From an uncultured Actinomycetota bacterium (lineage in GTDB: Bacteria; Actinomycetota; Actinomycetes; Propionibacteriales; Propionibacteriaceae), in the NCBI GenBank assembly GCA_963730505.1, contig CAVSSB010000031.1:26120-90119 (forward strand): a DNA stretch of 64,000 nucleotides, written 5' to 3'. The translations under genes and the position numbers were made by a program. Every line of letters starts with the position of its first letter. The first letter of the stretch is position 1. Below, piece after piece: positions 10,206-64,000 of the stretch. The notes below the pieces were generated by a model that was given only the letters and a program-made list of their open reading frames with translations, had not been told where the DNA came from and searched no databases.

Positions 10206-10424
10206 GGGTCAAGGTTAGTGTCGCGCTGGACGGCCGACGCATGCTTCGCCCGCCTGCTGAGCGTGGCCCGTCAGAGATTGAATGCGTCTTCCAGTAGCAC
10301 GCTGCTGTCGCGAGCACTCCAACTCCCATTGAGCAAACCTCGCAGGATTCACCACGACACCATGACGAATCGGCCCGCCCGCCAGGTTTCCTAGGCAGGC
10401 CGGGCAGGCTGACGGGTTTGCACT

Positions 10425-47727: not shown

Positions 47728-50169
47728 ATGGCTAGAACACCAGCACCACCAGAGGACGACTTTACCGAGCGAATCGTCGACATTGATGTCTCCTCGGAGA
47801 TGCAGACCAGCTTCTTGGAGTACGCGTACTCGGTGATCTATTCCCGGGCCCTTCCTGACGCCCGGGATGGGCTCAAGCCGGTACAGCGGCGGATCTTGTA
47901 CTCGATGGACGAGATGGGCGTACGGCCGGACCGTTCGCACGTCAAGTGCGCCCGCGTGGTCGGTCAGGTCATGGGTCAGTACCACCCGCATGGCGACGGT
48001 GCTATCTACGATGCGCTCGTCAGAACCGCGCAGCCGTGGACCATGCGATTGCCCCTGGTCGACGGCCACGGCAACTTTGGATCGCTGGACGACGGCCCGG
48101 CGGCAATGCGTTACACGGAGTGCCGGATGGCACCAGCCGCCGCGGCCATGACCGACGGACTCGACGAAGACACCGTTGACTTCAAGCCGAATTACGATGG
48201 CAAGGACATCGAGCCGACGGTGCTCCCCGCGGCTTTCCCCAACCTCTTGGTCAACGGCGCGACGGGGATCGCGGTCGGTATGGCAACCAACTGCCCGCCG
48301 CACAACCTGGTGGAGGTTATCCAGGCGCTACGTCACTTGATCAAGCACCCAGACGCCGACGTCGACGAGCTGATGCGTTTCATTCCCGGGCCTGATCTGC
48401 CGAGTGGCGGCAAGATCATCGGACTGGACGGTGTGCGCGCTGCCTACCACACCGGAAAAGGATCATTTCGTATCCGCGCCACCGCGCGGATCGAGCAGGT
48501 GCATCCACGTCGTAAGGGCATCGTGATCACCGAACTGCCCTATCTGATCGGCCCAGAGCGAGTGATCGAACAAATCAAGAGCCTTGTCAACGCCCGCAAG
48601 CTACAGGGCATCGCCGACGTCAAGGATCTATCGGACCGGGCTAATGGAACTCGGCTGGTGATCGAGATCAAGAGCGGCTTCAATCCCGACGTCCTACTGG
48701 AACAGCTCTACAAGCTGACCAAGATCGAGGACAACTACGCGATCAATGCCGTGGCCCTGGTCGACGGCCAGCCGCGCACGCTGACGCTCCGCGACATGCT
48801 CACCGTCTATCTCGAGCATCGCTACGAGGTAACGCGGCGCCGGACAGAGTTCGCCAGGACGAAGGCCCGAGAGCGGCTTCACCTGGTCGAAGGTTTGCTG
48901 GTGGCGATCCTCGATATCGATGACGTCATCGCCATCATCCGCTCATCTGATGACACCGCCCAGGCCCGCTCGCGGCTGATGGAGGTGTTCGAGCTTTCGG
49001 AAACACAGACCAACTACATCCTCGAGATGCCGCTCCGCAGGCTCACCCGATTCAGCCGGATCGAGCTCGAGACCGAGCGGGACAAGCTGGTAGCGACCAT
49101 CGCCGAGCTCACCGAGATCTTGGACAACCCTGAGCAGCTCCGCACGCTCGTCGGCAACCAGCTTGCCGAGATTGCCCAGCAGCACGGCAGCCCGCGCCGG
49201 ACGATCTTGCTGGCGGCGAGCGGCGTTGCGGCCATCGCTACCACTGCTCCGCTGGAAGTCGCGGACGATCCCTGTTGGGTACTGCTCTCCTCCGCCGGTC
49301 TGCTGGCCCGCACCAATCACGCGCAGCCATTACCGCCTGTGGGTGCACGAGCCAACCACGACCTCGTCATGTCCAAGATCATCTCGACTGCTCGTGGCGA
49401 CTGCGGACTTGTCACCAGCGCCGGCCGGCTGATCAAGATCTCTGCGCTCGATCTCCCAACTGTCCCCAGCACCGCCCATGCACCCAACCTCCAGGGTGGT
49501 ACTCATGTGAGCGAGCTGGTCACTCTTGCCGCCGATGAGAAAGTGCTCTGCCTGACAACGCTGACCGCGGATTCGCTGGGCCTGGCACTCGGCACAGCGC
49601 AGGGTGTGGTGAAGCGGGTCAATCCGGAGGTGCTCGGCAAAGACGCGTGGGATGTGATCCGACTGGAGCCTGGCGATCGCGTAGTCGGCGCAGTTGAACT
49701 CACCAGCACCGAAGCCGAGCTGGTCTTCATCACCAACGACGCCCAACTGCTGCGCTTCCCCGCCGCTGCGGTACGACCGCAGGGTCGCCCTGGAGGCGGC
49801 ATGGTGGGCATCAAGCTCGGTATCGGCGGACGTGCCATCTACTTCGGCGCGATAACCACGGCCGACGCGGTGGTCGCCACCGTGTCCGGCACGTCTCGTG
49901 CCCTGCCTGGAACCGATGCCGGCTCCGTCAAGATCACCGAGTTTCGACATTATCCGGCCAAGGGCCGGGCAACCGGTGGAGTACGCTGCCATCGGTTCCT
50001 CAAGGGCGAGGATTCTCTACTGCTCGCCTGGGCGGGGCCGGCGCCTGCCATCGCCGCTGCGGCTAGCGGCAGTCCCGTTCCGTTGCCGGCCGCAGACACC
50101 CGGCGCGACGGATCAGGAACCCCCGGCAGTCAGCCCATCGCGGCGATTGGCTCGGCCGCCGCCGGCTGA
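47728..50169 (+). CDS. parC: Type IIA topoisomerase subunit A (topoisomerase IV ParC-type)
   Basis: [34 protein letters not shown]; degenerate CTD; not in a gyrBA operon. Confidence 0.88.
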
Positions 50170-50196
50170 TCAGGTTCGCATTGGAGGTCGATACCC

Positions 50197-50736
50197 GTGG
50201 ACCGCGCTCCAGAGCATCGGCCGGACCATCATGAGTCCACTGACGGCGCCTTCGACGATCTACTGGCCAACAACAAGAAGTTCGCTGAGCGCTTTGATCA
50301 ACATGGCTTCGACGGGGTTGCCCATGCAGGAGTCTTGATGATCACCTGCATGGACTCCAGAATCGTTCCACTCGAAATGGTCGGGCTGACCTTCGGTGAC
50401 GCCAAGATCATCCGTACCCCGGGCGGTCGGGTGACCACCTCGGCGCTGGCTGGATGTATTGCCGGTGTCCACCTGCTTCAGGTGAACCGGATCATGGTGA
50501 TCCCCCACAGCCGCTGTGCTATGGCGGCTGCCGACGATGATGTGATCATCGAGGAGATCCGAAATGCCAGCGGTGCCGACGCCTCTTGGGTGCGGTTCGG
50601 TGCCTCGGCCGACCAGCGGCGTACTCTGCATCGCGACGTTGAGAAGCTCCGGAATCATCCACTGGTCGGCGACCGAGCAGCCGTAGGCGGCTTCTACTAC
50701 GACGTAGACACCGGTCTCCTGGAACGCTGGGACTAA
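50197..50736 (+). CDS. Beta-class carbonic anhydrase
   Basis: TCMDSR, RTPGGR, HSRC zinc ligands, YDVDTG. Confidence 0.9.
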   Translation: MDRAPEHRPDHHESTDGAFDDLLANNKKFAERFDQHGFDGVAHAGVLMITCMDSRIVPLEMVGLTFGDAKIIRTPGGRVTTSALAGCIAGVHLLQVNRIMVIPHSRCAMAAADDDVIIEEIRNASGADASWVRFGASADQRRTLHRDVEKLRNHPLVGDRAAVGGFYYDVDTGLLERWD

Positions 50737-50747
50737 CTCCCTACGCG

Positions 50748-52823
50748 TTACGCGTCGATGGTGGCAGCGTCGAGGGCGTACGCCCCGTCGATGATGAACG
50801 CCTTGCGGGGCACGACATCATTGCCCATCAGCATCTCGAAGGTGGCTTCGGCGAGCAGCCCGTCATCCACCGTCATTCTGCGTAGCGTACGGTGCCGTGG
50901 ATTCATCGTTGTCTCGGCGAGCTGATCAGCGTCCATCTCGCCAAGGCCCTTGTAGCGCTGCGGCTCCTTGAAGTGCAGGCCGCGCTTGGTCAGCTCAGCC
51001 GCTTTCCGTTGGTACTCAGCGTCGGAGTAGGTGTAGATGTACTTCTCCTGGCCCTTGCGGGCATTGGTCAGCTCGAAGCGATGCAGGGGCGGCACGGCGG
51101 TAAAGACCCGTCCGGCAGCCACCAGCGGGCGCATGTACCGGAAAAACAACGTCGCCAGCAAACAGCGGATGTGGGCACCGTCGGAATCGGCGTCGGCCAT
51201 GAAGATGATCTTGCCGTAACGCGCCGCTTCAAGATCGAAGGTGCGGCCAGAGCCTGCGCCGACGACTTGAATGATCGAGCCGCACTCGGTGTTTTTCAGC
51301 ATGTCGCCGATCGACGCCTTCTGCACGTTGAGGATCTTTCCCCGGATCGGCAACAGCGCCTGGAACTCGGAGTTCCTGGCCAGCTTGGCCGTACCGAGGG
51401 CCGAGTCGCCTTCGACGATGAACAGTTCGGTTCGGTCAATGTCGTTGCTGCGGCAGTCAACGAGCTTGGCTGGCAGTGATGATGACTCGAGCGCATTCTT
51501 GCGCCGCTGCGCCTCCCGGTGCTGGCGGGCAGCTACTCGAGCCCGCGCGGCGCCAACGACTTTCTCCAATACCGCGCGCGCCTGCGCCCTGGTCGCCATC
51601 TTGGTGGATCCCAAGAACCTCGTGAGCTCATGTTCGACGGTCTTGGCCACCAGCCGTGACACTGCCGGCGTGCCGAGCACTTCCTTGGTCTGACCTTCGA
51701 ATTGCGGCTCCGCCAGCCGCACGGTAACCACCGCCGTCATGCCCTCGAGCACATCGTCCTTCAGCACCTCGTCGCCGTTCTTCAGCAGTCGAGTGTTGTG
51801 GAGCGCGTTCACAAAAGCTTTGGTCAGTCCGCGTTCGAACCCTGCGACATGGGTGCCACCTTTGGGTGTGGCGATGATGTTCACGAACGAATGGGTACGC
51901 GTCTCGTAGCCCTCACCCCAACGGACGGCAACATCGATGTCCAGGTCACGCTCAACGTCTGCGGGCTCCATATGGCCCGCATCATCCAGCATGGGGACGG
52001 TCTCAGTGAACCGATCGGTGCCGCGCAGCCGGATGACGGCACTGATGGGTTGGTCCGGAGCGAGGAACTCGCAGAATTCGGAGATACCTCCCTGGTGCAG
52101 GAACGTCTCTTCGATGACGTCTGGGGTACGCGCATCGGTGATGTGGAGCGCCAAACCCGGGATCAAAAAGCTGGTCTGCCTGGCGCGGTCTTGGAGATCC
52201 CGAAACGACAGCTGGGCGTCGTGGAGAAAGATCTGCCGATCGGGCCAGTAGGTCACCCGGGTACCAGTGGTCCCCTTCGGTACCCGTCCAATCTTGCGGA
52301 GCTCACTTCCGGGGGTGAACTTCGCCGTCGGACCGGACCCGTCAAACGTCCCAGGAACGCCACGACGGAATGACATAGCCCAGGTAGCGGAGTTGCGGTC
52401 CACCTCGACGTCAAGCCGACTCGACAACGCATTGACAACCGAAGAACCCACGCCGTGCAGCCCGCCCGTCGCGTTGTATGAGCCGGCGCCGAACTTGCCC
52501 CCCGCGTGCAGTTTGGTGAAGACCACCTCTACCCCGGAGAGGCCGGTCCGCGGTTCGATATCTACCGGAATACCACGAGCTCGGTCGTTCACTGAGATGC
52601 CACCATCCGAGCGCAGTGTGACGAAGATCTCCTTGCCATGGCCGCCGAGCGCCTCGTCGACCGCATTGTCGATGATCTCCCACAGGCAGTGCATCAGCCC
52701 TCTGGTGTCGGTGGAGCCGATGTACATCGCGGGCCGTTTCCGAACGGCCTCAAGCCCCTCCAGCACCAGCAGGTGCCGTGCCTCATATTCACGGCTTTCC
52801 GTTGCTGGGCTGGCAGTTGGCAC
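50748..52823 (-). CDS. parE: Type IIA topoisomerase subunit B (topoisomerase IV ParE-type)
   Basis: EGLEAVRKRP.MYIG, EIIDNAVDE, LHAGGKF, VEGDSA, PIRGKILN, DADSDG, RYKGLGEM. Confidence 0.9.
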   Translation of the reverse strand: MPTASPATESREYEARHLLVLEGLEAVRKRPAMYIGSTDTRGLMHCLWEIIDNAVDEALGGHGKEIFVTLRSDGGISVNDRARGIPVDIEPRTGLSGVEVVFTKLHAGGKFGAGSYNATGGLHGVGSSVVNALSSRLDVEVDRNSATWAMSFRRGVPGTFDGSGPTAKFTPGSELRKIGRVPKGTTGTRVTYWPDRQIFLHDAQLSFRDLQDRARQTSFLIPGLALHITDARTPDVIEETFLHQGGISEFCEFLAPDQPISAVIRLRGTDRFTETVPMLDDAGHMEPADVERDLDIDVAVRWGEGYETRTHSFVNIIATPKGGTHVAGFERGLTKAFVNALHNTRLLKNGDEVLKDDVLEGMTAVVTVRLAEPQFEGQTKEVLGTPAVSRLVAKTVEHELTRFLGSTKMATRAQARAVLEKVVGAARARVAARQHREAQRRKNALESSSLPAKLVDCRSNDIDRTELFIVEGDSALGTAKLARNSEFQALLPIRGKILNVQKASIGDMLKNTECGSIIQVVGAGSGRTFDLEAARYGKIIFMADADSDGAHIRCLLATLFFRYMRPLVAAGRVFTAVPPLHRFELTNARKGQEKYIYTYSDAEYQRKAAELTKRGLHFKEPQRYKGLGEMDADQLAETTMNPRHRTLRRMTVDDGLLAEATFEMLMGNDVVPRKAFIIDGAYALDAATIDA

Positions 52824-53286: not shown

Positions 53287-53304
53287 ACCCCTGAGACGCC
53301 TCAG

Positions 53305-53338
53305 CCGGCCCCAGCCAATTCACCATGGTTGGGGCCGG
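53305..53338. terminator. Hairpin between the small Zn protein gene and the original sigA 3' end
   Basis: CCGGCCCCAGCCA / TGGTTGGGGCCGG 13-bp stem with one G-U pair. Confidence 0.65.
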
Positions 53339-53377
53339 TCTGCGTCTGCAATGCGAGCTTGAGCTACCTGAGGCGCT

Positions 53378-53395
53378 AGTCCAGATAGTCCCGCA
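53378..53395. repeat. att core direct repeat, left junction (displaced native sigA 3' end)
   Basis: AGTCCAGATAGTCCCGCA identical to 63684-63701; minus strand reads LRDYLD then TAG. Confidence 0.93.
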
Positions 53396-53539
53396 TTAGG
53401 GACGACCCAACGCTATGCATCTGAGCGTGTTTCGCGACAGGTTTGCGAGCGCTGTGGGGCGAAATATTCCCGACTGAGTCGGGCGGTCCCGGTTCGCGTT
53501 AGCGGCGCTCCCCGGGACCTCGATGCCCCAGGAGGCACC

Positions 53540-53782
53540 GTGTCCCCATCCTCCCCTATCGTGCTCGCCAGCGGGCAGCTCACCCGTTCCGGCGACCAAC
53601 TGATCATCGAGCTAGTCCAGCCCGATTCGATGCCCGCGGCGGTCCGCGTGGTTTGGCCGGTGAAACCCTCCGTCACCGCACCCACACCTAAAGCGCTCGC
53701 GGCGTTGGCGGCGGCGATGGTGCGTTGCCTGGCGGAGGCTCAGACGGAACTCGCCGCGATTAAGGCGGGCCGACGACTGTGA
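53540..53782 (+). CDS. Hypothetical small protein
   Basis: 80 aa; GGAGG SD 4 nt before GTG. Confidence 0.6.
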   Translation: MSPSSPIVLASGQLTRSGDQLIIELVQPDSMPAAVRVVWPVKPSVTAPTPKALAALAAAMVRCLAEAQTELAAIKAGRRL

Positions 53783-53818
53783 ACTGCTCGGGTGAAGATG
53801 ACCGCCCGGACCGCCCAC

Positions 53819-53968
53819 CTACCCGTTAAGGGGAAACTGCCCAGTCTCAAGATGTGATCTGATGAGCCCGCACCGTTTGCACGTCCATACCGTTTCGTGC
53901 TTCTCGGCATCCCAGCCGTTGTGCCACTGATGTCGACGGAACAGGCAGCGCAATTTTTGAGGCAGCAT
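53819..53968 (-). CDS. 49-aa Cys/His Zn-binding microprotein (DUF1660-like), not in ORF track
   Basis: My translation: MLPQKLRCLFRRHQWHNGWDAEKHETVWTCKRCGLIRSHLETGQFPLNG; paralog of 54121..54270. Confidence 0.7.
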   Translation of the reverse strand: MLPQKLRCLFRRHQWHNGWDAEKHETVWTCKRCGLIRSHLETGQFPLNG

Positions 53969-54120
53969 CCGAACACTTCCCAGTCTCGATCACAGTAGCG
54001 AGAAGTGACCTGGCTGTATACGTTCCCCTGACCGCTCACTCGTTTCTGGCTCTTGCTGGCTAAGGAGCCGCTCGCTCCGCCGTCCCGGCCCGCTCGCGGC
54101 TCCCAAGAGGTCGAGTTGGC

Positions 54121-54270
54121 CTAGTAGCTCCCCGGGCCCGCCCCGTAGTCGGTCAGGGTGTACTTCTCCCGATAGGCGCCGCAGCGCGTGCAGAGCTGGT
54201 ACCTCTGGCCCTCGTCGTTGTGGTACGTGTGCCAAACGTGCAGATGAAGCAGGCACCTGAACGGCTTCAT
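54121..54270 (-). CDS. 49-aa Cys/His Zn-binding microprotein (DUF1660-like)
   Basis: MKPFRCLLHLHVWHTYHNDEGQRYQLCTRCGAYREKYTLTDYGAGPGSY; C-x4-H-x-W...CxxC. Confidence 0.7.
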   Translation of the reverse strand: MKPFRCLLHLHVWHTYHNDEGQRYQLCTRCGAYREKYTLTDYGAGPGSY

Positions 54271-54533
54271 CTCCGCAGTCTGTCGGAGACCCCAGCTAAC
54301 AACTCCATCGGGTGCGGACCGACCGCAGGTATTCCAGGACTTGCGCCGCCTCCCCCTGGTCGGCCCGCCCTTTATCAAGCTACGGGTAGCCGGTGAGAGC
54401 CTTCCACGTACACCGCGCAAACATTCCACAGCCTGCAGTGCCGTAGTGTCCGGGTGCGTGCGACCCATCTGGGTGACGCTGTTCGTAAGATCCGGGCTCT
54501 TCCTTCCTGGCGTGCTAAGGCGATCCCGGAGGG

Positions 54534-54683
54534 TCATTCCCGCAGTCGGAATTCGTGCCGCTCTCCGGCGGTCCCCACCACGGATGACGATCCTCGCACC
54601 AATACTCCCGTGAACATGCCTACGACGATGAAGAAGCCGACGACCGCCAGAAGAGCGAACACGACGAGGGCGGGGTTAGCCAT
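54534..54683 (-). CDS. 49-aa single-TM microprotein, not in ORF track
   Basis: MANPALVVFALLAVVGFFIVVGMFTGVLVRGSSSVVGTAGERHEFRLRE; GGAG upstream. Confidence 0.55.
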   Translation of the reverse strand: MANPALVVFALLAVVGFFIVVGMFTGVLVRGSSSVVGTAGERHEFRLRE

Positions 54684-54720
54684 ACGCGGAGCTCCGTGGT
54701 CACGTCGGCACCAGACCTAT

Positions 54721-54831
54721 CTAGTCCCGCCATCCGATCAGGTACCAGTTGGCAACGAGCATCCCGAAGAAGAAGAAGGCGATCCCGATGGTCTCGACCA
54801 CCGTCAAGGCGATCAGCTTCGCATACGTCAC
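54721..54831 (-). CDS. 36-aa single-TM microprotein, not in ORF track
   Basis: GTG start: MTYAKLIALTVVETIGIAFFFFGMLVANWYLIGWRD. Confidence 0.5.
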   Translation of the reverse strand: MTYAKLIALTVVETIGIAFFFFGMLVANWYLIGWRD

Positions 54832-54835
54832 GGCG

Positions 54836-54946
54836 TCACCAGTCCATTACCGAGACGTAGTAGGTGAAGGCGTGATAGCCGAGAATGAGCCCGAGCGGGA
54901 TCGAGACGATCTGCGTCAGTGCCAAGGCGATGCGCTTCGCGGTCAT
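54836..54946 (-). CDS. 36-aa single-TM microprotein, not in ORF track
   Basis: MTAKRIALALTQIVSIPLGLILGYHAFTYYVSVMDW; 4 nt upstream of the next 36-aa ORF. Confidence 0.5.
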   Translation of the reverse strand: MTAKRIALALTQIVSIPLGLILGYHAFTYYVSVMDW

Positions 54947-55135
54947 GCCGTCGAATCATAGGGGACATACGTCGCAGTCACTGGTGTGACAGGGAGTCTG
55001 TAAAACTCTCACGTCAGGGGTCGTAGTGAGCGGTGGGCCACGCCATCGAGACAAGACTGATAGGTCAAAAAGCTCAGCGAATGACATATCTAGACGTACA
55101 GACCAGCGCCTGACGAACGGCTGTGCGCAGCCAAG

Positions 55136-55654
55136 CTAGCTCAGGGCGTCGCAGAGAGCCTGAACCGTTCCGTCCGCGCCAACATCGAAGCGTCCGTGGT
55201 ACTCCTCGGAGACGAGTTCCCCTATCGCAGGGTCGAAGACGAGTCGCCAAAGCCCGATGGCCTTCTCACCGCCCTTGATCTTCAAATGGATGCCGGTGCC
55301 GAAGATGCTGATCGTCCCGTCCTCGTTCTCGACGAACCGGTCCAGGCCCACGTCCGCCGTCGTGATGGTCGCCGTCGGACTAGTAAGGGTGGACCGGAAA
55401 CTCGGGTGAGCGGTGACCCGTTTCACGGAGCCGTCCGGGTTGAAGAACACGGTCTCCCGGTAGTGCCCAGCGATGCGTGCAGTCACCGGAAACCCGCAAG
55501 CCTCGCTCAAGAACTCGTCCTCGACCGTGACGTCCGCGTCGAACACCTCAGAGACCACCCGCTCAGGCGGTACGGCCATGGCAGGCGAAGCAGTCGAAGC
55601 AGTCGCCAGCCCAACTGCCAGTGCAAGAGTCGCTGCCGCGATGATTCGAATCAT
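55136..55654 (-). CDS. Secreted beta-rich hypothetical protein with a Cys pair
   Basis: Signal peptide MIRIIAAATLALAVGLATASTASPAMA; LSEACGFPV...LCDAL. Confidence 0.8.
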   Translation of the reverse strand: MIRIIAAATLALAVGLATASTASPAMAVPPERVVSEVFDADVTVEDEFLSEACGFPVTARIAGHYRETVFFNPDGSVKRVTAHPSFRSTLTSPTATITTADVGLDRFVENEDGTISIFGTGIHLKIKGGEKAIGLWRLVFDPAIGELVSEEYHGRFDVGADGTVQALCDALS

Positions 55655-55846
55655 CCTGCCCCCGATCGTGTTGCTAGCCCCCGGCCAGTCTGAGCAACCT
55701 TATCCCCGGGGACTGCGGCGGCGTGCAGAACGGCCAAATGTGGTAGCAGGTCCTCTAGATCGATCCCCTCGGCGGCCTTCGATTCCCGACCCCGGCGTGA
55801 GAAAGGAAACGAAAAGCCGCCGGGCGGGTGACATTGACGCCCAGAC

Positions 55847-56203
55847 CTAACCCGGCCGCCTGCCGAGGAACCGGACACCCAAAATTTGCCCCCGCTGCTG
55901 GTCAACCGTGACAATCGCACGCAGATCTGGATCGCTAGTCAACCGCTGATAATCAGCAGCGGCCAACCGAAACCTGACCCAGTTACCGGCCACCGCTTCA
56001 CCGCGGCCAATGTCGCGCCCCGCAGCACGCGCGTACACAGTCGGTGCGCCGTAACGGCCGTCATCCTGCATCAGCGCCTGATGACCCTTCCGCCAAAACC
56101 TCGCGCCGACACCAGACACCTTCACCAACACCGACCCCGTGGCGGGGTCATGAGTTGTCTCGACATCACAGGTGGCAAGCGGCGCCGGAAGAGTCACACT
56201 CAC
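55847..56203 (-). CDS. Hypothetical protein
   Basis: 118 aa; GTGA overlap with the upstream gene's stop. Confidence 0.6.
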   Translation of the reverse strand: MSVTLPAPLATCDVETTHDPATGSVLVKVSGVGARFWRKGHQALMQDDGRYGAPTVYARAAGRDIGRGEAVAGNWVRFRLAAADYQRLTSDPDLRAIVTVDQQRGQILGVRFLGRRPG

Positions 56204-56660
56204 TCCTCATCCGGCGTCCCGGAGATGGGGTGGAAGACCGTCCCCTGGTGGCTCAACGAATCCTCCAACACGCTCGTTCGTTTCGGCCGGGCGGCACGGT
56301 CAGCCGCCGCCCACGCCTCCGCAGCCGACACGCCGACTGGAAGCTCGTGCCAGGGCTGACCGCGGTACAACGCGGCCCTAAACCGCCGATCCTCCTCGAC
56401 GGCCTTCTGCTCCTGCCGTGCAGCCACTTCTTGAGCCCGTAGCTGATTCTCACGGTGCTCAGTGAACAGCTGCCTCGCGGCGTCGCGTGAGATCGCGTCG
56501 CGGCCGATGTCGTCGACAACAACCGGAATGTTCCGGCCATTGAGGTAGCCGACGCTGACCTCAGGCAAATCCAATGCGAGCTGCTGATCGGAACAGGGCC
56601 GTCGGCCGGGGCGGCGTCCTGGTGGGGCGGCCCGATGTCGGTCTTGGTGCTGCCGAACAT
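56200..56660 (-). pseudogene. Element hypothetical protein with an apparent 1-nt deletion near 56582
   Basis: Frame 1 MFGSTK...GPVPIS joins frame 2 QLALDLPEVSVGYL...VVDDIGRDAISRDAARQLF if AGCAG is read as AGCCAG. Confidence 0.5.
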
Positions 56661-56693
56661 ATGAATTCATCTCCAATTCAAATTAGGAACTGA

Positions 56694-56817
56694 TGGCGAG
56701 ACGATGGCAGGCGCGGCTGAGGACGCCGGGCAGAAAGGGACCCGGCTGACCGCCCTTCGGTCCCGAGTTGATTGAGGCCGAGTTGGCACTCGGGCGGCGT
56801 TGACCGTCGTCTCGCCA
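56694..56817. ncRNA. Candidate structured RNA (multibranch)
   Basis: 14-bp closing stem 56694-56707/56804-56817 enclosing three hairpins (56725-56746, 56748-56762, 56778-56793); folded by eye. Confidence 0.4.
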
Positions 56818-56820
56818 AGC

Positions 56821-57003
56821 TCATGTGGTCCGCTGTTCCGGCCCGGTGTGTCTGGTCAAGGCATTGAGCAGCCGTACGCGTTCGGGGTCCGGTAGCTCAT
56901 CCACTCGTTCGGCGAGTTCCCTCGCCAAACGCACCGGCCTTTGAGCACCCCACCGCGACCCCGACAGCTGCCGCGCAGCAACACTCACCGCACTGTCGCT
57001 CAT
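56821..57003 (-). CDS. 60-aa hypothetical protein
   Basis: MSDSAVSVAARQLSGSRWGAQRPVRLARELAERVDELP...; ATG 57003 within track ORF. Confidence 0.55.
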   Translation of the reverse strand: MSDSAVSVAARQLSGSRWGAQRPVRLARELAERVDELPDPERVRLLNALTRHTGPEQRTT

Positions 57004-57086
57004 GCGGACAACGATACCGCAAACATGTTGCGCCCCACCTACGCCAGACACAACAACCCGCCGCCAAATCGCCGTAAATTGAGCGT

Positions 57087-57481
57087 ATGGCGATGCATCG
57101 CAAGCGGCCGATGATGGACAGCCCCCCGCCGGCCGAGCTACTCAGGTTCAGACCGGACAACTGGACAGGGCCAGCCCACGAAACCACCTGGCACCCCGCC
57201 TACGAACGGTGGTGCGCAGCCCGGCAAGCCTGGAGAACCAACACCCCGGCTGGCTGGGTGATCCCGTGGAACAACTACACGACGAACACCAGACCCGGCA
57301 CGAACTCATGCAACGCTGGCCGCTCGAACCGATGGGCCCCGTCAAGATCACCAACTACATCGTCCAAGAAGGCGTCGTCGACCCGGTAACCGGTCTGATC
57401 CGGGGCCGCGTAGCTGGCGAGGACCACATCCCGGCCGGTGGAATCGGCATCCGCCACTGCGACTGGCTACCAGGTATCTAA
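57087..57481 (+). pseudogene. Paralog of 57478..57726 with an apparent 1-nt deletion at about 57233
   Basis: MAMHRKRP...PAELLRFRPDNW...ERWCAARQAW joins ENQHPGWLG if TGGAG is read as TGGGAG; the repaired protein aligns with the neighbour. Confidence 0.65.
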
Positions 57482-57726
57482 CAACCCGCGGCCTCCCACT
57501 CAGAACGCCGACGCGCCTCAAACAGACGATGCTGCACCCTGAGCACATCCAACGCCGTGCCAATCTCCGAACCCGGATGCTGCTTCACAAACTTCATGCG
57601 AGCCCGACCCCAGAGTTCACACGACTGCCACCATTCCCCAGCCGGCCACTCACTCGGATCGAAGATCATCAGCTCAGGCGGAGGCGCCACCGTCAACGGC
57701 GGACGACGATGCACAGCCACTGTCAC
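57478..57726 (-). CDS. Trp-rich hypothetical protein directly downstream of terS
   Basis: VAVHRRPP...PPELMIFDPSEW...ELWGRARMKFVKQHPG; GTGA overlap with the terS stop. Confidence 0.7.
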   Translation of the reverse strand: MTVAVHRRPPLTVAPPPELMIFDPSEWPAGEWWQSCELWGRARMKFVKQHPGSEIGTALDVLRVQHRLFEARRRSEWEAAGC

Positions 57727-58142
57727 CAACCCCCTTCGCTGGCCGCCCGGAGTTCGGCAAGCTTGCCGTTGCTCTCACCGTCGCCCTTGTTCCGCCAACG
57801 CCCGGCGGCGGCCTTCTGGGCATGCCTGCTGCTAGCGCGAGTACCGACTTCCTCGGTGTCGTCAGGAAGATTCAGAGCCGTCGTGAGGCGCTCCAACAGC
57901 AGACGATGGGCACGAACCTCACTGAGCAGCGGATGCGGCCGTATCTGGCCTGTGCTCCCGACGGTGGTCAACTCAGGCAAGGCCCGAACAGCACGCTCCA
58001 GCCGATCCAACTCATCGGCCGTACGGGCGGCTTGACCGAGCATCTCCACCTCAGCCGCAGTCAACACATACTTGTCGACCACAGACAGCCACAGCCGCTT
58101 ACCCGACGCTCTCAGACCACTCGGCGGCCTTTGGTCGGGCAT
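57723..58142 (-). CDS. terS: Phage terminase small subunit (P27-like, actinophage type)
   Basis: PPSGL..SGKRLW..V...Y.L...E..ML..AA...D.L..L...V.GSTGQ..PHPLL.EVR..R..L..L..ALNLPD...S..AQKAA..RW. Confidence 0.8.
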   Translation of the reverse strand: MPDQRPPSGLRASGKRLWLSVVDKYVLTAAEVEMLGQAARTADELDRLERAVRALPELTTVGSTGQIRPHPLLSEVRAHRLLLERLTTALNLPDDTEEVGTRASSRHAQKAAAGRWRNKGDGESNGKLAELRAASEGGW

Positions 58143-58335
58143 AGAGTCATTCTCTCAGGCCCCCGCCCGGAAAACGACCTTCGGGCATGTCGGGGACGGA
58201 GACGAAGTGACTCTAGTCCCGCGATGATTTCACCTCAAAGAAACCGACCCCACTCACCATCTCGCCGCGGTGTTCACTGTCCGATCCCACACTGGTGGCC
58301 AGTCGGTCACGGTTTGCTCCTTGCGGCACGCTGGA

Positions 58336-58357
58336 GGGGCGCCTGGAACGGCGCCCC
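58336..58357 (-). terminator. GC hairpin after 58370..58753
   Basis: GGGGCGCC-TGGAAC-GGCGCCCC, 12 bp past the stop. Confidence 0.55.
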
Positions 58358-58369
58358 GGTGCTGTGCGG

Positions 58370-58753
58370 TCAGCTGTTTAGCCGCTTGCAAATCGAGTCG
58401 AGGTCAGTGACGTGTGGCTCATTGATCATGATGGTCTTACCGTTCGAGAGGTTGGTCTTCAGCTGCAGACCGGTGAACTCAACTGATCTGCCTGCGATGC
58501 TGGTGAGGACCGTACCGTCAGGTTCGACCCGTGTGATCTCGATCGTGGCAGTCTGGAACGGCACCTGGTTGGTGCCCTTGCTGAAGAAGCCGGCGATATT
58601 GGCCACCCGCAGGTCCTGCGGACCGACTGGTTTTTGGGGAGCAGTCAAGACCGTGATGGTACCGCTGATGGTGAATTCGACCCGACCCCCGCACCGATCG
58701 CTCAGAATCTTGCTTCGGAACGAGTCTGAGATGGGGATCCTTTCCCTTATCAT
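58370..58753 (-). CDS. Hypothetical protein, remote paralog of 55136..55654 without a signal peptide
   Basis: GAGGAGG SD; ILSDRCGGRV...EPDGTV...SICKRL. Confidence 0.75.
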   Translation of the reverse strand: MIRERIPISDSFRSKILSDRCGGRVEFTISGTITVLTAPQKPVGPQDLRVANIAGFFSKGTNQVPFQTATIEITRVEPDGTVLTSIAGRSVEFTGLQLKTNLSNGKTIMINEPHVTDLDSICKRLNS

Positions 58754-58947
58754 CCGTCCTCCTCACCCGATTTCGGCGCCTAGCCGGTGCGTCTGGACTC
58801 GACAGTACTCGGAAACCCGGGCGCCGGTCGGGCTAGGTGTGACTCGTGGAATAACACCGGTGAGGCGTCCGGGTGTGACTGTCATTAGCGGGCGGTCATG
58901 TCTTCGTTGCCTCTAGTTGATCTTGTTTGGCGCTCGGGACTACGCAA

Positions 58948-59104
58948 GGGGGTCTTATTAAGACCCCCAACTTGCGCATAGGTCTGGCCGCGCATAGCCC
59001 GCATAGGTCTGCGCATAGGTCTGTTGAGCGTAGCGCGAACAGCCCGCATAGGGTCCGCACAGCTATACGGCCGAAAAGGCCGCGCATAGGTCTCCGCATA
59101 GGTC
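58948..59104. repeat. Candidate replication origin: palindrome plus iterons
   Basis: GGGGGTCTTA-T-TAAGACCCCC at 58948-58968, then seven CGCATAG heptamers at 58975, 58991, 59000, 59012, 59045, 59083, 59095, abutting the primase-helicase stop. Confidence 0.8.
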
Positions 59105-60812
59105 ATTTCGCCGCCCAAATCTTGGGTTTGTTGGTGGCTGCGTCGCCCGGTTGGGTGATCTTCAGAAAGCCTTGGCCGGTGAGTTTGTCGAGCCTTCTGC
59201 GGGCCTTGTCCTTTTCGTTTGGGGTGGGCTTGTCGGTTTCGAATATCGCCATTGCAGCGGCGGCCGCGGTTAGCCCACCAGGCTGCTTGGCGAGGAGGAC
59301 AAGGTCGACGCTGCGCCAGATTTCGGATTTGCCGGTGTCGTGGTCGTGGATGATTTTGAGCGGGCCAACTTCGGAGGCTGGCTGTTTGATGTGGTGGAAC
59401 GACACGATCGCATCACCGGGTTTGCCGTTGAGCAGAACCACGGAGCCTGCTCCGGATGTGATCCAGGTCGAGCCGTAGACGCCGTCGATGGTTGGATGTT
59501 CGGCTTCGACGCGGGTTAACGCTTTGCGGAGGTGGTGGAGCTCCAGGACCTGGACGCCAGCCGTGCAGGCGGTTTGGCGGGCCCGGTTGTAGCTGGCTCC
59601 CACTTCATCGTCAGAGAGTCCGACGGCGGCGTCTTTGAGTGAGTCGACTATCACCGCGTCGGCACACGCCTGCTTGCAGAGTTCCAGCAGCAGGGATGGG
59701 TATTTGGCGAGGTCACCGGGCGGCGGTCCTTGCCAGACGGTCAGATGCTCGTGGAGTTGGGCGCGGTGTTCTTCGCCTACCATGCGGCGGAATGATCGGG
59801 CGGCTTGTCGGGGCCTGTCCATCGCCAAGTACAGGACCCGCATCCCTGAAGTGATCGGGAAGCCGAGCAGGCTGGAGTAGCCGGGGATTCTCATCCAGCC
59901 GAGCGCTATCTGTTGGGCCAACGTAGTTTTGCCTAGGCCTTGTAGCGCGGCGATGATGAGGGCTTCGCCGTCGGCCCATAGGACCTGGTCCCCTTCGCCC
60001 CACAGCGCCTTGGGTTCGGGATCTGTGTCGAGGATGAAGTTGTCGCCGGGCGTGAACTGGAAACCTGTCTTGGCGTCTTGGTCGGGTTCTGGTTCGTCCT
60101 CTCCTGGCTGAGGCGGCGCAACTGAGAGTAGACCGTCGGGCCCGTGTCCAGCTGCGATGTGGTCGGCAGCGTCTTTGCCAACTTTGGCCAGTTTGAACTG
60201 CAGGCTTTTAGCTTTGAGTTTGAGCGCGGTTCGAACCTGCTGCGCCCATTGTTTGCCGCCGTTGTCACGGTCGGGTATGGCGATAATGTCGGCGCCGGTC
60301 AGTGGTGACACATCCACTTTATGGAAGTTGGCGGCGCCCATTGGTGCGGTGGTGGCCACCAGCCCGATGGACTCGAGCGCGTGAACGTCTTTCTCGCCTT
60401 CTACCAGGTAGACGGTCTGCCCAGCTGCGACAGCCTCGGTTATTTTCGGGAGCCGGTAGAGGATCGGTTGGGATTGGGTGTCGCCGCTTTGCCAGAACTT
60501 CTTTTCTGGGCTGCGGTGTGCTGTGCGCAGGATTTGGCCTGGTGCGACTTCGTAGACGTAGGTGACGCCGCGGGGTTCGTCGTACAGGTCACGGCTGGCC
60601 ATGCCGAGCGCGTCGAGCACAGCCTCGATTGGGCAGCCGGTGTGGCAGTGCGCCAACACCTGGCCTTCGATGCCCGTGATCGACAACGACGGATGCCGGT
60701 CATCGTGGGCTGGACATTGGGCCTTCGCCTGGTTCGGCCTGCCGTTGGTTTTGACGACCTTGCCGAGGTCGTGGAGCCGGTCTAGTAGCCGGTCGTAGGC
60801 CGTGGCGGTCAT
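59103..60812 (-). CDS. Primase-helicase (Zn finger, TOPRIM, RepA/AAA_25 SF4 helicase)
   Basis: CPAHDDRHPSL..HCHTGC; VYLVEGEKD...PDRD; Walker A QGLGKTT; VIVDSL; HHLRK; YGSTW; GGAGG SD before ATG 60812. Confidence 0.92.
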   Translation of the reverse strand: MTATAYDRLLDRLHDLGKVVKTNGRPNQAKAQCPAHDDRHPSLSITGIEGQVLAHCHTGCPIEAVLDALGMASRDLYDEPRGVTYVYEVAPGQILRTAHRSPEKKFWQSGDTQSQPILYRLPKITEAVAAGQTVYLVEGEKDVHALESIGLVATTAPMGAANFHKVDVSPLTGADIIAIPDRDNGGKQWAQQVRTALKLKAKSLQFKLAKVGKDAADHIAAGHGPDGLLSVAPPQPGEDEPEPDQDAKTGFQFTPGDNFILDTDPEPKALWGEGDQVLWADGEALIIAALQGLGKTTLAQQIALGWMRIPGYSSLLGFPITSGMRVLYLAMDRPRQAARSFRRMVGEEHRAQLHEHLTVWQGPPPGDLAKYPSLLLELCKQACADAVIVDSLKDAAVGLSDDEVGASYNRARQTACTAGVQVLELHHLRKALTRVEAEHPTIDGVYGSTWITSGAGSVVLLNGKPGDAIVSFHHIKQPASEVGPLKIIHDHDTGKSEIWRSVDLVLLAKQPGGLTAAAAAMAIFETDKPTPNEKDKARRRLDKLTGQGFLKITQPGDAATNKPKIWAAK

Positions 60813-61123
60813 AACGTCACCTCCGGACCAAGATCGATCGGGAGGTAGCCAGGCAGCAGTGCCAGGCAGCCGGGCTCGTGCGGCACCGTGACCTCGATTG
60901 CAAGGCCGGCACGAGCTGCTCGGCGTCGCGCGGCCCGGTTCGGCAAGATCAGCTTGGCGCCGCATGGGCAGGTACCCCCGCCGTTGACGATGGCTCGGCG
61001 GCTCAACCCTTCTTTGATCGCTTCGGGTGCATTGTCGGGGATCTCGGTTTCCAAGATCACGAGACGTTCGCCTTGCAGGGATGTTTCTCTTGGCCGGTAC
61101 CGGAACTCGATCGGCTCACTCAT
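60809..61123 (-). CDS. Hypothetical protein with a CPCG...HxxGC metal site
   Basis: 104 aa; 4-nt overlap with the primase start. Confidence 0.7.
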   Translation of the reverse strand: MSEPIEFRYRPRETSLQGERLVILETEIPDNAPEAIKEGLSRRAIVNGGGTCPCGAKLILPNRAARRRAARAGLAIEVTVPHEPGCLALLPGYLPIDLGPEVTL

Positions 61124-61193
61124 CGCGACCACCGCCGAGTGGGCGGTAAACTGAGCGCAGAATCCATCGCCCGCAATCGCATGGTTTCTTGAT

Positions 61194-61220
61194 GAGCCGG
61201 CCCCCCACCAGGGCCGGTTC
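61194..61220. terminator. Hairpin in the early operon spacer
   Basis: GAGCCGGCCC / GGGCCGGTTC stem. Confidence 0.4.
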
Positions 61221-61225
61221 GCTTT

Positions 61226-61522
61226 TCATGCGGCATCCGGGGCACCGCCTGAATGCAGCTCAGCCTCAGCAGACTCGGCGACGACGGTCAACTCTTTGAT
61301 CTTGCGACGAGCCTGGGCGGACTTATGCGCAAGCCGCAGAAAGTGCGCCTTGCGCAGGTGCTCGGCGCGGACGGGGTCGCCGTTTGCCTGCGCCAAAAAC
61401 CTTGCGGCGAGAGCCGCGCGGGCGGGCGCGGTTCTAGCGGTTCGATCCTCGGTGACAGCCCAAGAGGCATGCGCCCCGAGCTTGCCGATCAGTCTCCGCT
61501 CAGCGGGGGTGGAAGCAGTCAT
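61226..61522 (-). CDS. Small basic protein typical of actinobacterial integrative elements (AHxSWA...DRTARTAPAR)
   Basis: AHASWAVTEDRTARTAPARAA...RKAHFLRLAHKSAQARR; first gene of the replication operon. Confidence 0.75.
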   Translation of the reverse strand: MTASTPAERRLIGKLGAHASWAVTEDRTARTAPARAALAARFLAQANGDPVRAEHLRKAHFLRLAHKSAQARRKIKELTVVAESAEAELHSGGAPDAA

Positions 61523-61669
61523 TTCGCATCACTCCATCGGCCCACCCTGCTGGGGGTTTGCCGTGGAGCTACTTTGCGACGGGCTTAGCTGCCGGACCCG
61601 TGCCCGCGGTCGCCGCGGGCCTGCGTTGTGCCATCAATTATGTCATATCGCTGGCGTATCGTCTGTGCG

Positions 61670-62020
61670 ATGATCATTGTCGAGTGTCACCGGTGTCACC
61701 GTCCGGTAGCACGCCTCGCCCTCCAGGACGGGCGCGCCGAGTTCCTCGGGACGACCGTGGCCGAGAACGGAGATCCGGGAGGTGCCCTCACAGCCGACGT
61801 CGGGCAGCGCATCGGGCGGTGGGCGGCGACTGAGGTGATTTCCACCGACGCGACAGTCGCGCCAGGTTCCGCGATGTCGACAGGGCGGAAAACGATCGGC
61901 CATGCCAGTGGACACTGCAACGAGCGTCGAACGGTCACGCTAGAGGCCCGGACGGCCGCCTACCACCGCGCGATAGCTGCGGGACGAAAGCGGATATCAC
62001 TCCTGGACTTGAGGGCCTGA
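61670..62020 (+). CDS. Hypothetical protein with N-terminal CxxC, divergent from the replication operon
   Basis: MIIVECHRCHRPVARL...GHC; 116 aa from ATG 61670; ends 7 nt from the integrase stop. Confidence 0.55.
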   Translation: MIIVECHRCHRPVARLALQDGRAEFLGTTVAENGDPGGALTADVGQRIGRWAATEVISTDATVAPGSAMSTGRKTIGHASGHCNERRTVTLEARTAAYHRAIAAGRKRISLLDLRA

Positions 62021-62027
62021 AACAGTT

Positions 62028-62939
62028 CTACAGTTCCCCCAGGTTGAGCCGCTGGGCCTCTTCGGCGGCCCTGGCGGATGCCTGAGCCTTGGTGTAGCGC
62101 AGGAGCATGTCGGGCCGCGTCCAGCCGGCCACGGCCATCAGGCCACCCTCGGAGCCGCCCTTCGCGAGCCAGCGGTGGGCCGCGGTGTGCCGCAGGCGAT
62201 GCGGGTGGAAACCCTGTATGCCGGCCATCTCGGCACGCATCGCCAATGTCTTGTGCAGTGCGTCGTAGGAGAAGTGTTTGCCCCGGTCCCCCAGCCACAA
62301 CGCCGGATCGTCTTTGAGCCGATGCGACCGGCGGGATCGCAGATAGCGGTCAATGGCAGCGGCAACCTCCACCGCCAACGGGACCACCCGGCCTCTGCCG
62401 CCTTTGCCACGGCGGATGATCGCTGTCGGCGGATCAGTACGCAGGTTCAGGTCCTGGACTTGCAGCGCAACCACCTCACCGGCCCGAGCACCGGATGTGA
62501 ACATCAGCCGCACCAATGCCTCGTCGCGCTTGTCGCGTAGATCAGGGCCCCGGCATGCCTTTAGCAGTGCCCGTAGCTGGTCGTCGGTCAGCGGCTCAAC
62601 CACCGGCTTATCCAGTCTGGGTGAGCGAAGCCCGAGCAGTGGATCGGCTACCTGTTCGCCTTCCTCGGTGAGCCAGGCCGAGAAGCGTCGCACCGCAAGG
62701 TGGCGAGATACTGCGGTTGCGGGTTTGGCGCCGGAGGTCAGCAGCCCATCGACGAACTCTCGGAGCTGCCGCCGCTCCAAAACAGCGGGTTTCTCGTTGG
62801 CGGCGCACCAGGTGAGGTAGGCGCGTATCCCGTCGCCGTAGCTCTTGACCGTTTGGGGTGACTTCCGCTCCGCCCGCAAGTGCAGCTCCCAGGAGCCCAG
62901 CAGCTCGGCGAGGTCCGGCGCGGCGTTACGGCTGGCCAT
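62028..62939 (-). CDS. int: Tyrosine recombinase / integrase (XerC/D-sized, 303 aa)
   Basis: SAM-like domain SPQTVKSY; catalytic R (TSGARAGE), K (GKGG), HRLRH, GW, RY; GAGGGG SD before ATG 62939. Confidence 0.95.
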   Translation of the reverse strand: MASRNAAPDLAELLGSWELHLRAERKSPQTVKSYGDGIRAYLTWCAANEKPAVLERRQLREFVDGLLTSGAKPATAVSRHLAVRRFSAWLTEEGEQVADPLLGLRSPRLDKPVVEPLTDDQLRALLKACRGPDLRDKRDEALVRLMFTSGARAGEVVALQVQDLNLRTDPPTAIIRRGKGGRGRVVPLAVEVAAAIDRYLRSRRSHRLKDDPALWLGDRGKHFSYDALHKTLAMRAEMAGIQGFHPHRLRHTAAHRWLAKGGSEGGLMAVAGWTRPDMLLRYTKAQASARAAEEAQRLNLGEL

Positions 62940-62961
62940 CGACCCCTCTTGACGTAACAAC

Positions 62962-63496
62962 TCAGGGTGCAGTCGCGGTCTGACCGAGGGCCAGGGCAAC
63001 GGCCTCCGGTGGCGTCATGACCACGATGCCCACGTCCGACCGCAGCCGCTCCTGCGTCCGCTTCTTGATCAGGTGCTTGTCCCGGGTGACGAACACGTCG
63101 TGTCCGGCCATCACGTGCGCGGTGAGGTGGTGGACATCGATCATCCGCCTGCCGGCGTCTTCCGGTTTCTTGCCTTCCAGGACAATCGCCGCGATCTCCT
63201 CGTCCAAGCGCTGCGTCTCGTCGTCTGCGAACACGTCACCGTTGAAAAATTCGTAGTCGTCGCCGAGCCTGAGCGAACCTGGCACCTTTTACGATCGGCG
63301 TCTGGCTCAGATAGTCCAGGTTGTCCCGGCGCTGGTCCGGAGAGGCTTTGCGTTGGTCCGCCTCGAAACCGGAGGTTCTGGCGATGGCAATCTTGCCCGC
63401 CGCCGCCAGCTCGACCAGCCGCTCAACGGACGGGCTATCAGGCTCTCCGTTGGCGGCAGCGATCACGCTGTTCGTGTCTAAGGTGAATGTCACCAT
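62962..63496 (-). pseudogene. Stand-alone PIN-like domain gene split by a 1-nt insertion in the A4 run at 63287-63290
   Basis: N-half FTLDTNSV; C-half MIDVHHL.AH..AGHDVFVTRD; one A fewer gives a continuous 177-aa protein. Confidence 0.7.
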
Positions 63497-63681
63497 GGTT
63501 CCGGCGTCCTTCTCCGACGTTGTCTCCGCAGATCCCAGACGCCGTTACCCGGCCCCCCGATGCTGCGCTGTGTCGCGGCCTAAACAATAGCGCAATATCT
63601 TGGACTAGAACGCTGTGCAATGCTACGTTTGGCGTGTCAGGCCCCATTTCACGCGTAAATCACGGTGAAACAGCTAGATGC

Positions 63682-64000
63682 TCAGTCCAGATAGTCCCGC
63701 AACACCTGCGACCGGGATGGGTGCCGCAGCTTGCTCATGGTCTTGGACTCAATCTGGCGGATGCGCTCCCGGGTGACCCCATACACCTTGCCGATCTCAT
63801 CCAGGGTCTTGGGCTGGCCGTCGGTCAATCCGAAGCGCATCGACACCACTCCGGCTTCGCGCTCACTGAGAGTGTCCAATACGTCGTGTAACTGCTCCTG
63901 CAAAAGGGTGAAGCTCACCGCATCTGCCGGAACGACGGCCTCCGAATCCTCGATCAAATCTCCGAACTCAGAGTCACCGTCTTCGCCGAGCGGTGTATGC
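63682..64000 (-). CDS. sigA: Principal RNA polymerase sigma factor, 3' end (partial, runs off window)
   Basis: Region 4: [62 protein letters not shown]. Confidence 0.95.
63684..63701. repeat. att core direct repeat, sigA-side junction
   Basis: AGTCCAGATAGTCCCGCA; followed on the minus strand by an element-supplied TGA. Confidence 0.93.

Follow-up and report, generated by a model that had tools for sequence, protein, structure and literature searches.

Site-specific integration of a 10.3-kb element at the 3' end of the principal sigma factor gene sigA, and use of the same attachment site across Actinomycetota

The 64-kb stretch of DNA analysed here (hereafter, the window) comes from an uncultured member of the Actinomycetota (Propionibacteriaceae; assembly GCA_963730505.1, contig CAVSSB010000031.1, positions 26,120-90,119) and carries, at 53396-63683, a 10.3-kb element whose listed genes are co-oriented with sigA, the gene for the principal sigma factor. 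We show that the insertion of this element is precise and site-specific, that it is bounded by an 18-nt core located in the last codons of sigA, and that the same bacterial attachment site (attB) is used across the phylum. The element was very probably integrated by a tyrosine integrase at the 3' end of sigA, with the concomitant rebuilding of that end. On a broader scale, the data make it fairly probable that a clade of Xer-like integrases throughout the phylum uses the near-invariant last codons of sigA/hrdB as an apparently undescribed attB, serving both phages of the type of Streptomyces phage Kromp and satellite-like elements of 10 kb, which bring their own stop codon and, often, a terminator.

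The core repeat and the empty site

On the plus strand, positions 53376-53395 read CTAGTCCAGATAGTCCCGCA and positions 63682-63701 read TCAGTCCAGATAGTCCCGCA; the two 20-mers are unlike only in the final two bases of a stop codon, and the exact direct repeat comprises 18 nt (53378-53395 = 63684-63701, at a spacing of 10,306 bp). With up to two mismatches allowed, the window contains exactly two occurrences of the 18-mer, and 100 dinucleotide-preserving shuffles contain none. In the sense of sigA, the core reads TG-CGG-GAC-TAT-CTG-GAC-T and comprises two bases of a leucine codon, the RDYLD codons and the initial T of the stop. The minus strand of 63682-63999 translates into the C-terminus of SigA, which ends in ...RDYLD and a TGA stop, whereas the distal copy, preceded by ATG and not by TTG, ends in TAG. 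An initial annotation, made from the letters of the window, had proposed integration at the 3' end of sigA, and this is what the repeat indicates, flanking as it does a 10.3-kb element with an integrase, with the sigA frame ending in the core. The same annotation had the core encode LRDYLD, which is correct for the five full codons of RDYLD but not for the leucine, of which the core holds only two of three bases, plus the T of the stop.

The identity of the target gene is well defined. The sigA fragment in the window matches the extreme end of NCBIfam NF004561, the model of the actinobacterial principal sigma factor, and its full-length orthologue of 476 residues on the metagenome contig L001, the C-terminus of which is identical to that of the window over the last 105 residues, reaches 797 bits against a cut-off of 582 and hence belongs to the principal (SigA/HrdB) sigma factors. 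A sigma paralogue of 316 residues, 4.5 kb away, fits the SigB model best (350.6 bits, under the 464-bit cut-off of that model); it was considered as a look-alike target and rejected, its C-terminus being ...KLRGKSVLAA. By analogy with M. tuberculosis (PMC10011835) and with HrdB of other actinobacteria, the gene is presumably essential in the present host.

The empty site was predicted as the window minus one core plus element, and contigs with such a site were obtained by lookup of the exact 65-residue DUF7455 protein encoded next to the element, which yielded four metagenome contigs (L001-L004). All four are colinear with the prediction (98.4, 98.0, 96.9 and 90.3% identity over the junction) and read sigA-TAG-hairpin; in L001, CTAGTCCAGATAGTCCCGCA at 10277-10296 continues without a break into the body of sigA and is separated by 88 bp from the stop of the DUF7455 gene, the hairpin being located between the two. 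Because the empty sites read in this way, the native stop is TAG, and the GA of TGA, being beyond the identity block and on the element side, must therefore be supplied by the element. The hairpin itself, which the initial annotation had placed at 53305, was confirmed: a fold of -45.5 kcal/mol (z = -3.86) was obtained for the minus-strand RNA of 53290-53378. Located between the 3' end of sigA and the convergent DUF7455 gene, it is now, together with the native sigA 3' region, 10.3 kb away from sigA. The protein is the same in both states, as had been claimed along with the exchange of TAG for an element-supplied TGA: the last 105 residues of SigA agree in the window, L001 and L002, and a comparison of the occupied L005 with the empty L001 shows identical SigA residues at 476 of 477 aligned positions. 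Thus, the element-free relatives with sigA-TAG beside the hairpin that the annotation had foreseen do exist, both as the above four contigs (90-98%) and as junctions in soil metagenomes.

The latter were found when public soil-metagenome runs containing the element were examined through Logan contigs. In X2, X3, X5 and X8, such contigs have 53377 directly joined to 63684, 18 letters fitting either side, at a depth of 3.9-9.2; element contigs with a depth of 2-4 are present in the same runs as the empty junctions, and one contig in X7 spans attL, the junction on the sigA side. Since the empty junction and the element are found in the same soil runs, occupied and empty alleles coexist in nature. 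Three other ENA samples independently yielded assemblies of the occupied arrangement, with DNA available for two of them (L005, L006), and the copies of the element from different samples are 99.3% identical. Two further ENA contigs, L060 (10,218 bp) and L061 (10,643 bp), consist of the element only and end exactly at the core boundary (...GGGTCGTCCCTAAT). They were considered as circles, a reading that was rejected as they show no terminal overlap; their ends are evidently breaks at a branching point of the assembly graph in att, which a sample containing both occupied and empty alleles should produce.

We propose the following course of events. The integrase would recombine an attP (the attachment site of the element) that mimics the tail of sigA with the real 3' end of the gene, so that the 10.3-kb element at 53396-63683 enters the chromosome, with strand exchange inside the 18-nt block TGCGGGACTATCTGGACT. 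The gene would keep its own body, pass through the shared core and end in the TGA of the element, whereas the native TAG and the terminator hairpin would be shifted by 10.3 kb to attR, the distal junction, leaving the SigA protein unchanged.

The integrase family and its preferred site

The integrase matches PF00589 with 88.3 bits (cut-off 27.1), PF02899 with 32.7 bits and phrog_1 with E = 1e-42. Residues R152, K179, H247, R250, W273 and Y282 are invariant in an alignment of 12 integrase sequences and, judging by their motifs, would form the catalytic R-K-H-R-(H/W)-Y set. The enzyme has an Xer-like two-domain structure, with a SAM-like N-terminal domain from residue 33-36 or so and a catalytic domain; no further domain that could serve as an arm-binding domain of the lambda type was found in its 303 residues, which places it outside the heterobivalent class. 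In these features, as in its length of about 300 residues, it resembles XerC and XerD, but, unlike them, it is encoded on a mobile element beside its own att site and not at a dif site. XerC and XerD also are its best NCBIfam matches, but with 137.6 and 135.3 bits against cut-offs of 335 and 330, so that it does not qualify as a chromosomal XerC/XerD.

This integrase has thousands of homologues, the best 120 clusters of which are 77-100% identical to it and mostly metagenomic. In L007 (86% integrase identity) and in L009, a metagenome-assembled genome (MAG) of Propionibacteriaceae (78%), int is found 104-105 bp after sigA, with different cargo. A scan with an integrase alignment, taking one genome per species, returned 49 loci, and in 38 of these a sigma gene on the same strand stops 67-411 bp before int; islands at other sigA 3' ends, which the initial annotation had proposed to look for, do exist. 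The sigma genes at the 38 loci end in ...RHPSR(S/A)Q(V/M/K)LR(D/E)YL(D/E)*, with TGA as the stop codon in all but two (36/38), and the hosts comprise Propionibacteriaceae, Micropruina, Nocardioides, Aeromicrobium, Modestobacter, Geodermatophilus, Streptomyces, Actinacidiphila, Rhodococcus, Pseudonocardia, Amycolatopsis, Actinomadura, Thermoactinospora and Micromonosporaceae. The last 30 residues of SigA/HrdB are identical in nearly all loci examined; because this tail is nearly invariant, much of the Actinomycetota offers one and the same short attB.

Among the 11 remaining loci, those with the two most distant integrases (32% identity; L049, L050) adjoin genes of transfer RNA (tRNA), and others follow different genes while retaining the motif of the P' arm, the element-borne arm on the side of int. 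The target gene in Kutzneria buriramensis (L033, ~3875-3894) has the tail ...GGYLD* (TGGGCGGCTACCTGGATTGA), with three mismatches to the sigA core; the one in Nonomuraea typhae (L051, ~3944-3963) ends in ...NVYLV*, with five mismatches; and a Gordonia MAG (L036) has an integrase of the family with the usual P' arm after a gene resembling acyl-CoA synthetase. By sequence, these three cases appear to be switches of the target to similar sequences. In L059, the P arm is followed by TGCGCGACTACCTGGAC and TAA, which is either an attP or a tandem junction. Cluster-E-type mycobacteriophages, with integrases 43-44% identical to that of the window, were considered as further users of the site and rejected, since in phage Bruin int is not preceded by a sigA mimic.

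The exchange of stop codons is a different matter. It was confirmed for the lineage of the window, but it is not general: some related hosts (L063, L064) natively use TGA as the sigA stop and, therefore, the swap is lineage-specific.

The site also bears traces of previous occupation. In L007 (20432-20900) and L062 (410-900), the core is present a second time; after it come TGAGCATCTCGGGCTGATTTGCC...GGGGTGTGACACCCC, which is the P' arm of the family in a degenerate form, and then some 460 bp up to the DUF7455 gene; as this second core looks like the fossil of an earlier element, the sigA site appears to have been used repeatedly.

The same integrase alignment found 17 IMG/VR contigs, ten of which (12-79 kb) carry ...TAG-TGCG(C/G)GACTAYCTNGAC-TGA at 100-150 nt upstream of int, most of these ten with flanking DNA on both sides of int. 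In the unintegrated phage genomes, namely, these ten contigs and Kromp, TGCGCGACTAYCTNGAC-TGA is located beside int with no sigma gene body upstream, and TGA is present in 11 of the 11 attP sites. The alignment of attP with attL diverges exactly 5' of TGCG, that is, at the left boundary of the 18-mer in the window. In a 9.8-kb element for which both ends are available (L066), attL and attR differ at one late base of the core (CTG/CTC), and because of this difference the exchange can be placed 5' of that base; altogether, we infer an exchange position within TGCG(C/G)GACTAYCT.

Among 50,697 GenBank phage records, this integrase subfamily is found only in Streptomyces phage Kromp (MH744420, 58,268 bp), which was isolated on S. 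lividans and whose gene 36 codes for a tyrosine integrase that shares 83% identity with that of the viral contig L074 and 55% with that of the window. The interval between gene 37 and gene 36 contains ...CCTAGTAGTGCGCGACTATCTCGACTGA, then a 19-bp hairpin (z = -4.97) and TTTGCTGTG, and this hairpin with the arm also follows the chromosomal sigA stop in Streptomyces sp. NBC_00645 (L037). Kromp and the window element have in common the layout of attP (P arm, TAG, TGCGCGACTATCTCGACTGA, P' arm, int), the motif GCAYRGCGYT and a homologue of the 98-residue protein described below. In contrast to the window element, Kromp has the complete genome (58 kb) of a temperate phage, in which an immunity repressor is annotated next to gene 39, and its P' arm includes the 19-bp hairpin and a T-rich run that the window element does not have. 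The GenBank record of Kromp carries no attP annotation, and no paper naming the attB of Kromp was found. The motif GCAYRGCGYT, common to both arms of the window element and to the Kromp-type attP sites, is a putative protein-binding site.

Many relatives possess a strong hairpin directly after the stop (z < -2 in 19 of 41 family sequences). Long, perfect, GC-rich hairpins, often with a T-rich run behind them, are located 15-30 nt after the element-supplied stop in L020, L023, L025, L027, L028, L031, L032, L035, L037, L040, L041, L043, L044, L056 and L058; in Kromp, such a hairpin is phage-borne (L082, 2900-2945). These hairpins may be replacement terminators of sigA or insulators for int.

Satellite, prophage remnant or artefact

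Because of the genes that the element carries, and because distinct 10-kb elements recur at the site, we favour a satellite-like replicon, that is, a phage satellite rather than a decayed prophage. The element resembles satellites of the type of phage-inducible chromosomal islands (PICI) and Staphylococcus aureus pathogenicity islands (SaPI) in its small size (10.3 kb), in having int at one end, a primase-helicase with nearby repeats and a gene resembling that of the small terminase subunit (TerS), and in combining an integrase and a replication module of its own with the lack of detectable virion and lysis genes. It differs in that no hallmark regulators of PICI were identified and that the TerS assignment is under the Pfam threshold. 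Specifically, the scans with Pfam, PHROGs and PADLOC detected no capsid, portal, tail or lysis genes in the element.

The strongest competitor is a decayed prophage, a remnant with a Kromp-like int/att module that has lost the virion genes and become immobile. Full-size relatives do exist (Kromp with 58 kb, viral contigs of 27-79 kb), the fossil arms in L007 and L062 show that decay occurs at this very site, the open reading frames (ORFs) beside attL may be frameshifted, and no circle of the window element, with the predicted junction ...GGGTCGTCCCTAATGCGGGACTATCTGGACTGAGCATCTAGC..., was seen in the viral-contig and metagenome scans. Still, distinct elements of ~10 kb with an intact int and replication genes of their own reside at the site (the window, L007, L061, L066 and the 10-kb viral contigs L072 and L075), the copies from different samples are 99.3% identical, occupied and empty alleles occur together in the same soils, and the primase-helicase, the iteron-like repeats and the TerS-like gene are all in place. 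Hence, we consider a decayed prophage a possible but distinctly less likely origin, and the window copy of the proposed satellite may still be mobile.

It could also be argued that the true target is the intergenic region or the terminator after sigA, with only an incidental overlap with the coding sequence. The strong hairpins that follow the stop at many loci (the 19 of 41 mentioned above) could, where both ends of the element are not available, be mistaken for host terminators. These hairpins, however, are phage-borne, being present in the unintegrated genome of Kromp and matching the one at sigA of NBC_00645; moreover, the coding 18-mer is the only sequence common to attL and attR of the window, attP and attL diverge exactly where the coding core starts, and the off-target members of the family sit at look-alike coding tails, ...GGYLD* (L033) and ...NVYLV* (L051), so that an intergenic target is most unlikely. 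One could dispense with site-specific integration altogether and regard the repeat as coincidental, as left by a transposon that duplicated its target or as produced by a chimeric assembly, since the window probably comes from a metagenome assembly, but the absence of matches in 100 shuffles, the same junctions assembled independently in other samples, the precise empty site, the presence of the same core in attP of phages with unrelated cargo and the length of 18 bp, which far exceeds the usual target duplications of transposons, leave these explanations with hardly any probability.

Several observations weigh against the interpretation advocated here, in its entirety or in part. The data are metagenome assemblies, with no isolate. 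The predicted 31-nt attP junction of the window element had no match among IMG/VR viral contigs, and a degenerate pattern of P arm, core and TGA retrieved from JGI metagenomes only attR or tandem junctions, namely, L062, where attR is followed by the fossil arm, and L063 and L064, where attR is found in hosts with a native TGA stop. As to the gene content, the TerS-like protein scores only 14.4 bits with Pfam Terminase_4 (cut-off 24.7, E = 0.05), so that the TerS call comes from PHROGs only, and some ten further small ORFs have no family match, which leaves most genes of the element unmatched. Finally, the P' arm of the window offers no convincing replacement terminator, with a fold at z = -0.46, not better than shuffles, and no entry in a simple terminator scan; integration may thus affect the sigA mRNA. 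In run X1, a joint leading back from 63698 to 53397 with 'TGA' in between was considered as the junction of a circle and rejected, as it equals the fossil-type junction of L007 and L062.

The way in which the target is repaired has precedents. In Escherichia coli, phage 21 and the element e14 use tyrosine integrases with an attB inside the 3' end of icd, and a substitute 3' end keeps that gene functional. Common to both cases is an attB within the terminal part of a conserved gene for a housekeeping protein; they differ in the gene targeted, in the phylum and in the lineage of the integrase, and the substitute end of icd is much longer and alters some codons, whereas the mimic in the window comprises ~18-20 nt and leaves the protein identical. 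Tyrosine integrases of actinobacteriophages that target genes of tRNA or transfer-messenger RNA similarly have a core that overlaps the conserved 3' end of a gene, which the phage copy rebuilds; the window target, in contrast, is protein-coding, the distant relatives L049 and L050 (32%) being the ones beside tRNA genes. Thus, the mechanism is that of conventional 3'-end reconstitution, and it is the target gene that appears to be new and, apparently, unreported.

The initial annotation had regarded sigA as an unusual landing site, and the literature agrees with this notion inasmuch as no report of sigA, hrdB or rpoD as attB was found in the full-text literature, subscription-only papers being outside the search. 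The site is unmentioned in a survey of actinobacterial prophages, and neither sigA nor any other sigma gene appears in the text of two papers that cover 29 prophage attB sites of M. abscessus and M. smegmatis (PMC8092301, PMC10654092). At attB-8 of M. abscessus, as described in these surveys, the host protein receives different C-terminal residues, whereas at sigA in the window they are preserved.

If the sigA/hrdB tail is indeed the attB of this clade, cassettes of int and attP could be developed into integration vectors whose host range may be broad, because the target sequence is conserved from Propionibacteriaceae to Streptomyces and Rhodococcus. They would usefully extend the small set of integration systems for Streptomyces, mycobacteria and their relatives, and Kromp is available as a cultured phage. 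Competition for one site in an essential gene, shared and repeatedly re-used by phages and satellite-like elements, would then account for both the fossil arms and the move of some integrases to look-alike tails. For the host, integration removes the native terminator of sigA, and carriage of the element could alter the 3' end and the stability of the sigA mRNA; transcription of sigA may extend into the two small ORFs and int, and such read-through could drive int.

Features of the element and its flanks

The features of the element and of the adjacent host DNA are collected in Table 1.

Table 1. Features of the sigA-integrated element and its surroundings (window coordinates; residues, aa)
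Feature	Coordinates	Strand	Basis and remarks
sigA, 3' part (principal sigma factor)	63682..64000	-	gene continues past the window end
attL common core	63684..63701	-	exact repeat, translation; in sigA sense TGCGGGACTATCTGGACT; continuous with the sigA body
TGA stop of integrated sigA	63682..63684	-	final two bases (63682-63683) on the element side, beyond the identity block
P' arm, element side of attL, non-coding	63585..63681	-	motifs GATTTACGCNTGAAATGGGG, GCACAGCGYTCTAGTCCAAGATATT; alignment with L007, L009, L039, L005
Two overlapping ORFs, 86 + 107 aa	62962..63496	-	between attL and int; element-specific cargo
Tyrosine integrase, 303 aa from Met21 of the ORF	62028..62939	-	PF00589, PF02899, phrog_1
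98-aa protein, phrog_2842	61226..61522	-	PHROGs match
Primase-helicase (Toprim + AAA_25/DnaB-like)	59103..60812	-	phrog_6012 E = 3e-106, phrog_6088 E = 9e-26, PF13481
Direct-repeat cluster, 12-14 nt, 4-5 copies	58973..59104	.	TGCGCATAGGTCTG; repeat families D1, D2; just 3' of the primase-helicase gene
Small-terminase-like protein, 139 aa	57723..58142	-	phrog_1496 E = 3e-18
172-aa ORF	55136..55654	-	hydrophobic N-terminus resembling a signal peptide; no family match
P arm, element side of attR	53396..53480	-	ends in ...GCATAGCGTTGGGTCGTCCCTAA at the core; L060/L061 end exactly here
attR common core, displaced copy of the sigA tail	53378..53395	-	exact repeat
Native sigA stop TAG (53376-53378) and native 3' region	53290..53378	-	strong hairpin ~53305-53340; arrangement as in empty sites L001-L004
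Host flanking gene, DUF7455, 65 aa	53089..53286	+	PF24254 on L001-L006; convergent with sigA in the empty state

The P' arm, which directly follows the TGA, is conserved among elements with integrases of 78-86% identity, and its terminal motif also precedes int in members of the integrase family at other targets; the P arm of the window is the same as that found in L062-L064. L007, L009 and L039 lack the two ORFs that separate the P' arm from int in the window, and there int follows sigA at ~100 nt. The two ORFs overlap by 50 nt in different frames. By eye, their ends resemble a PIN domain (FTLDTNSVI ... DVFVTRDKHL), which suggests a single frameshifted gene, a reading that was left unsupported by Pfam, PHROGs and PADLOC, none of which gave a match even for the fused sequence.

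The primase-helicase, called as a protein of 569 residues in L005, is the predicted replication protein of the element, and the iteron-like repeats at 58973-59104 may be its replication origin. The product of the 172-residue ORF, to judge by its N-terminus, may be a secreted or surface cargo protein.

Homologues of the 98-residue phrog_2842 protein are found in L007, L065-L077 and L080 and as gene 39 of Kromp (L082, 1168-1443), so that this protein accompanies the integrase family in almost every element or phage examined. It was considered as an excisionase and rejected, since its Kromp homologue, gene 39, adjoins the repressor and is not the helix-turn-helix gene after int.

On the other side of the element, the host flank at 47728-52823 encodes a pair of GyrA/ParC-like and GyrB/ParE-like proteins that adjoins sigA (Pfam, on L001), and this gyrase-like pair, the sigB-like gene and a PAC2 gene make up a conserved gene order that agrees with MAGs of the Propionibacteriaceae type.

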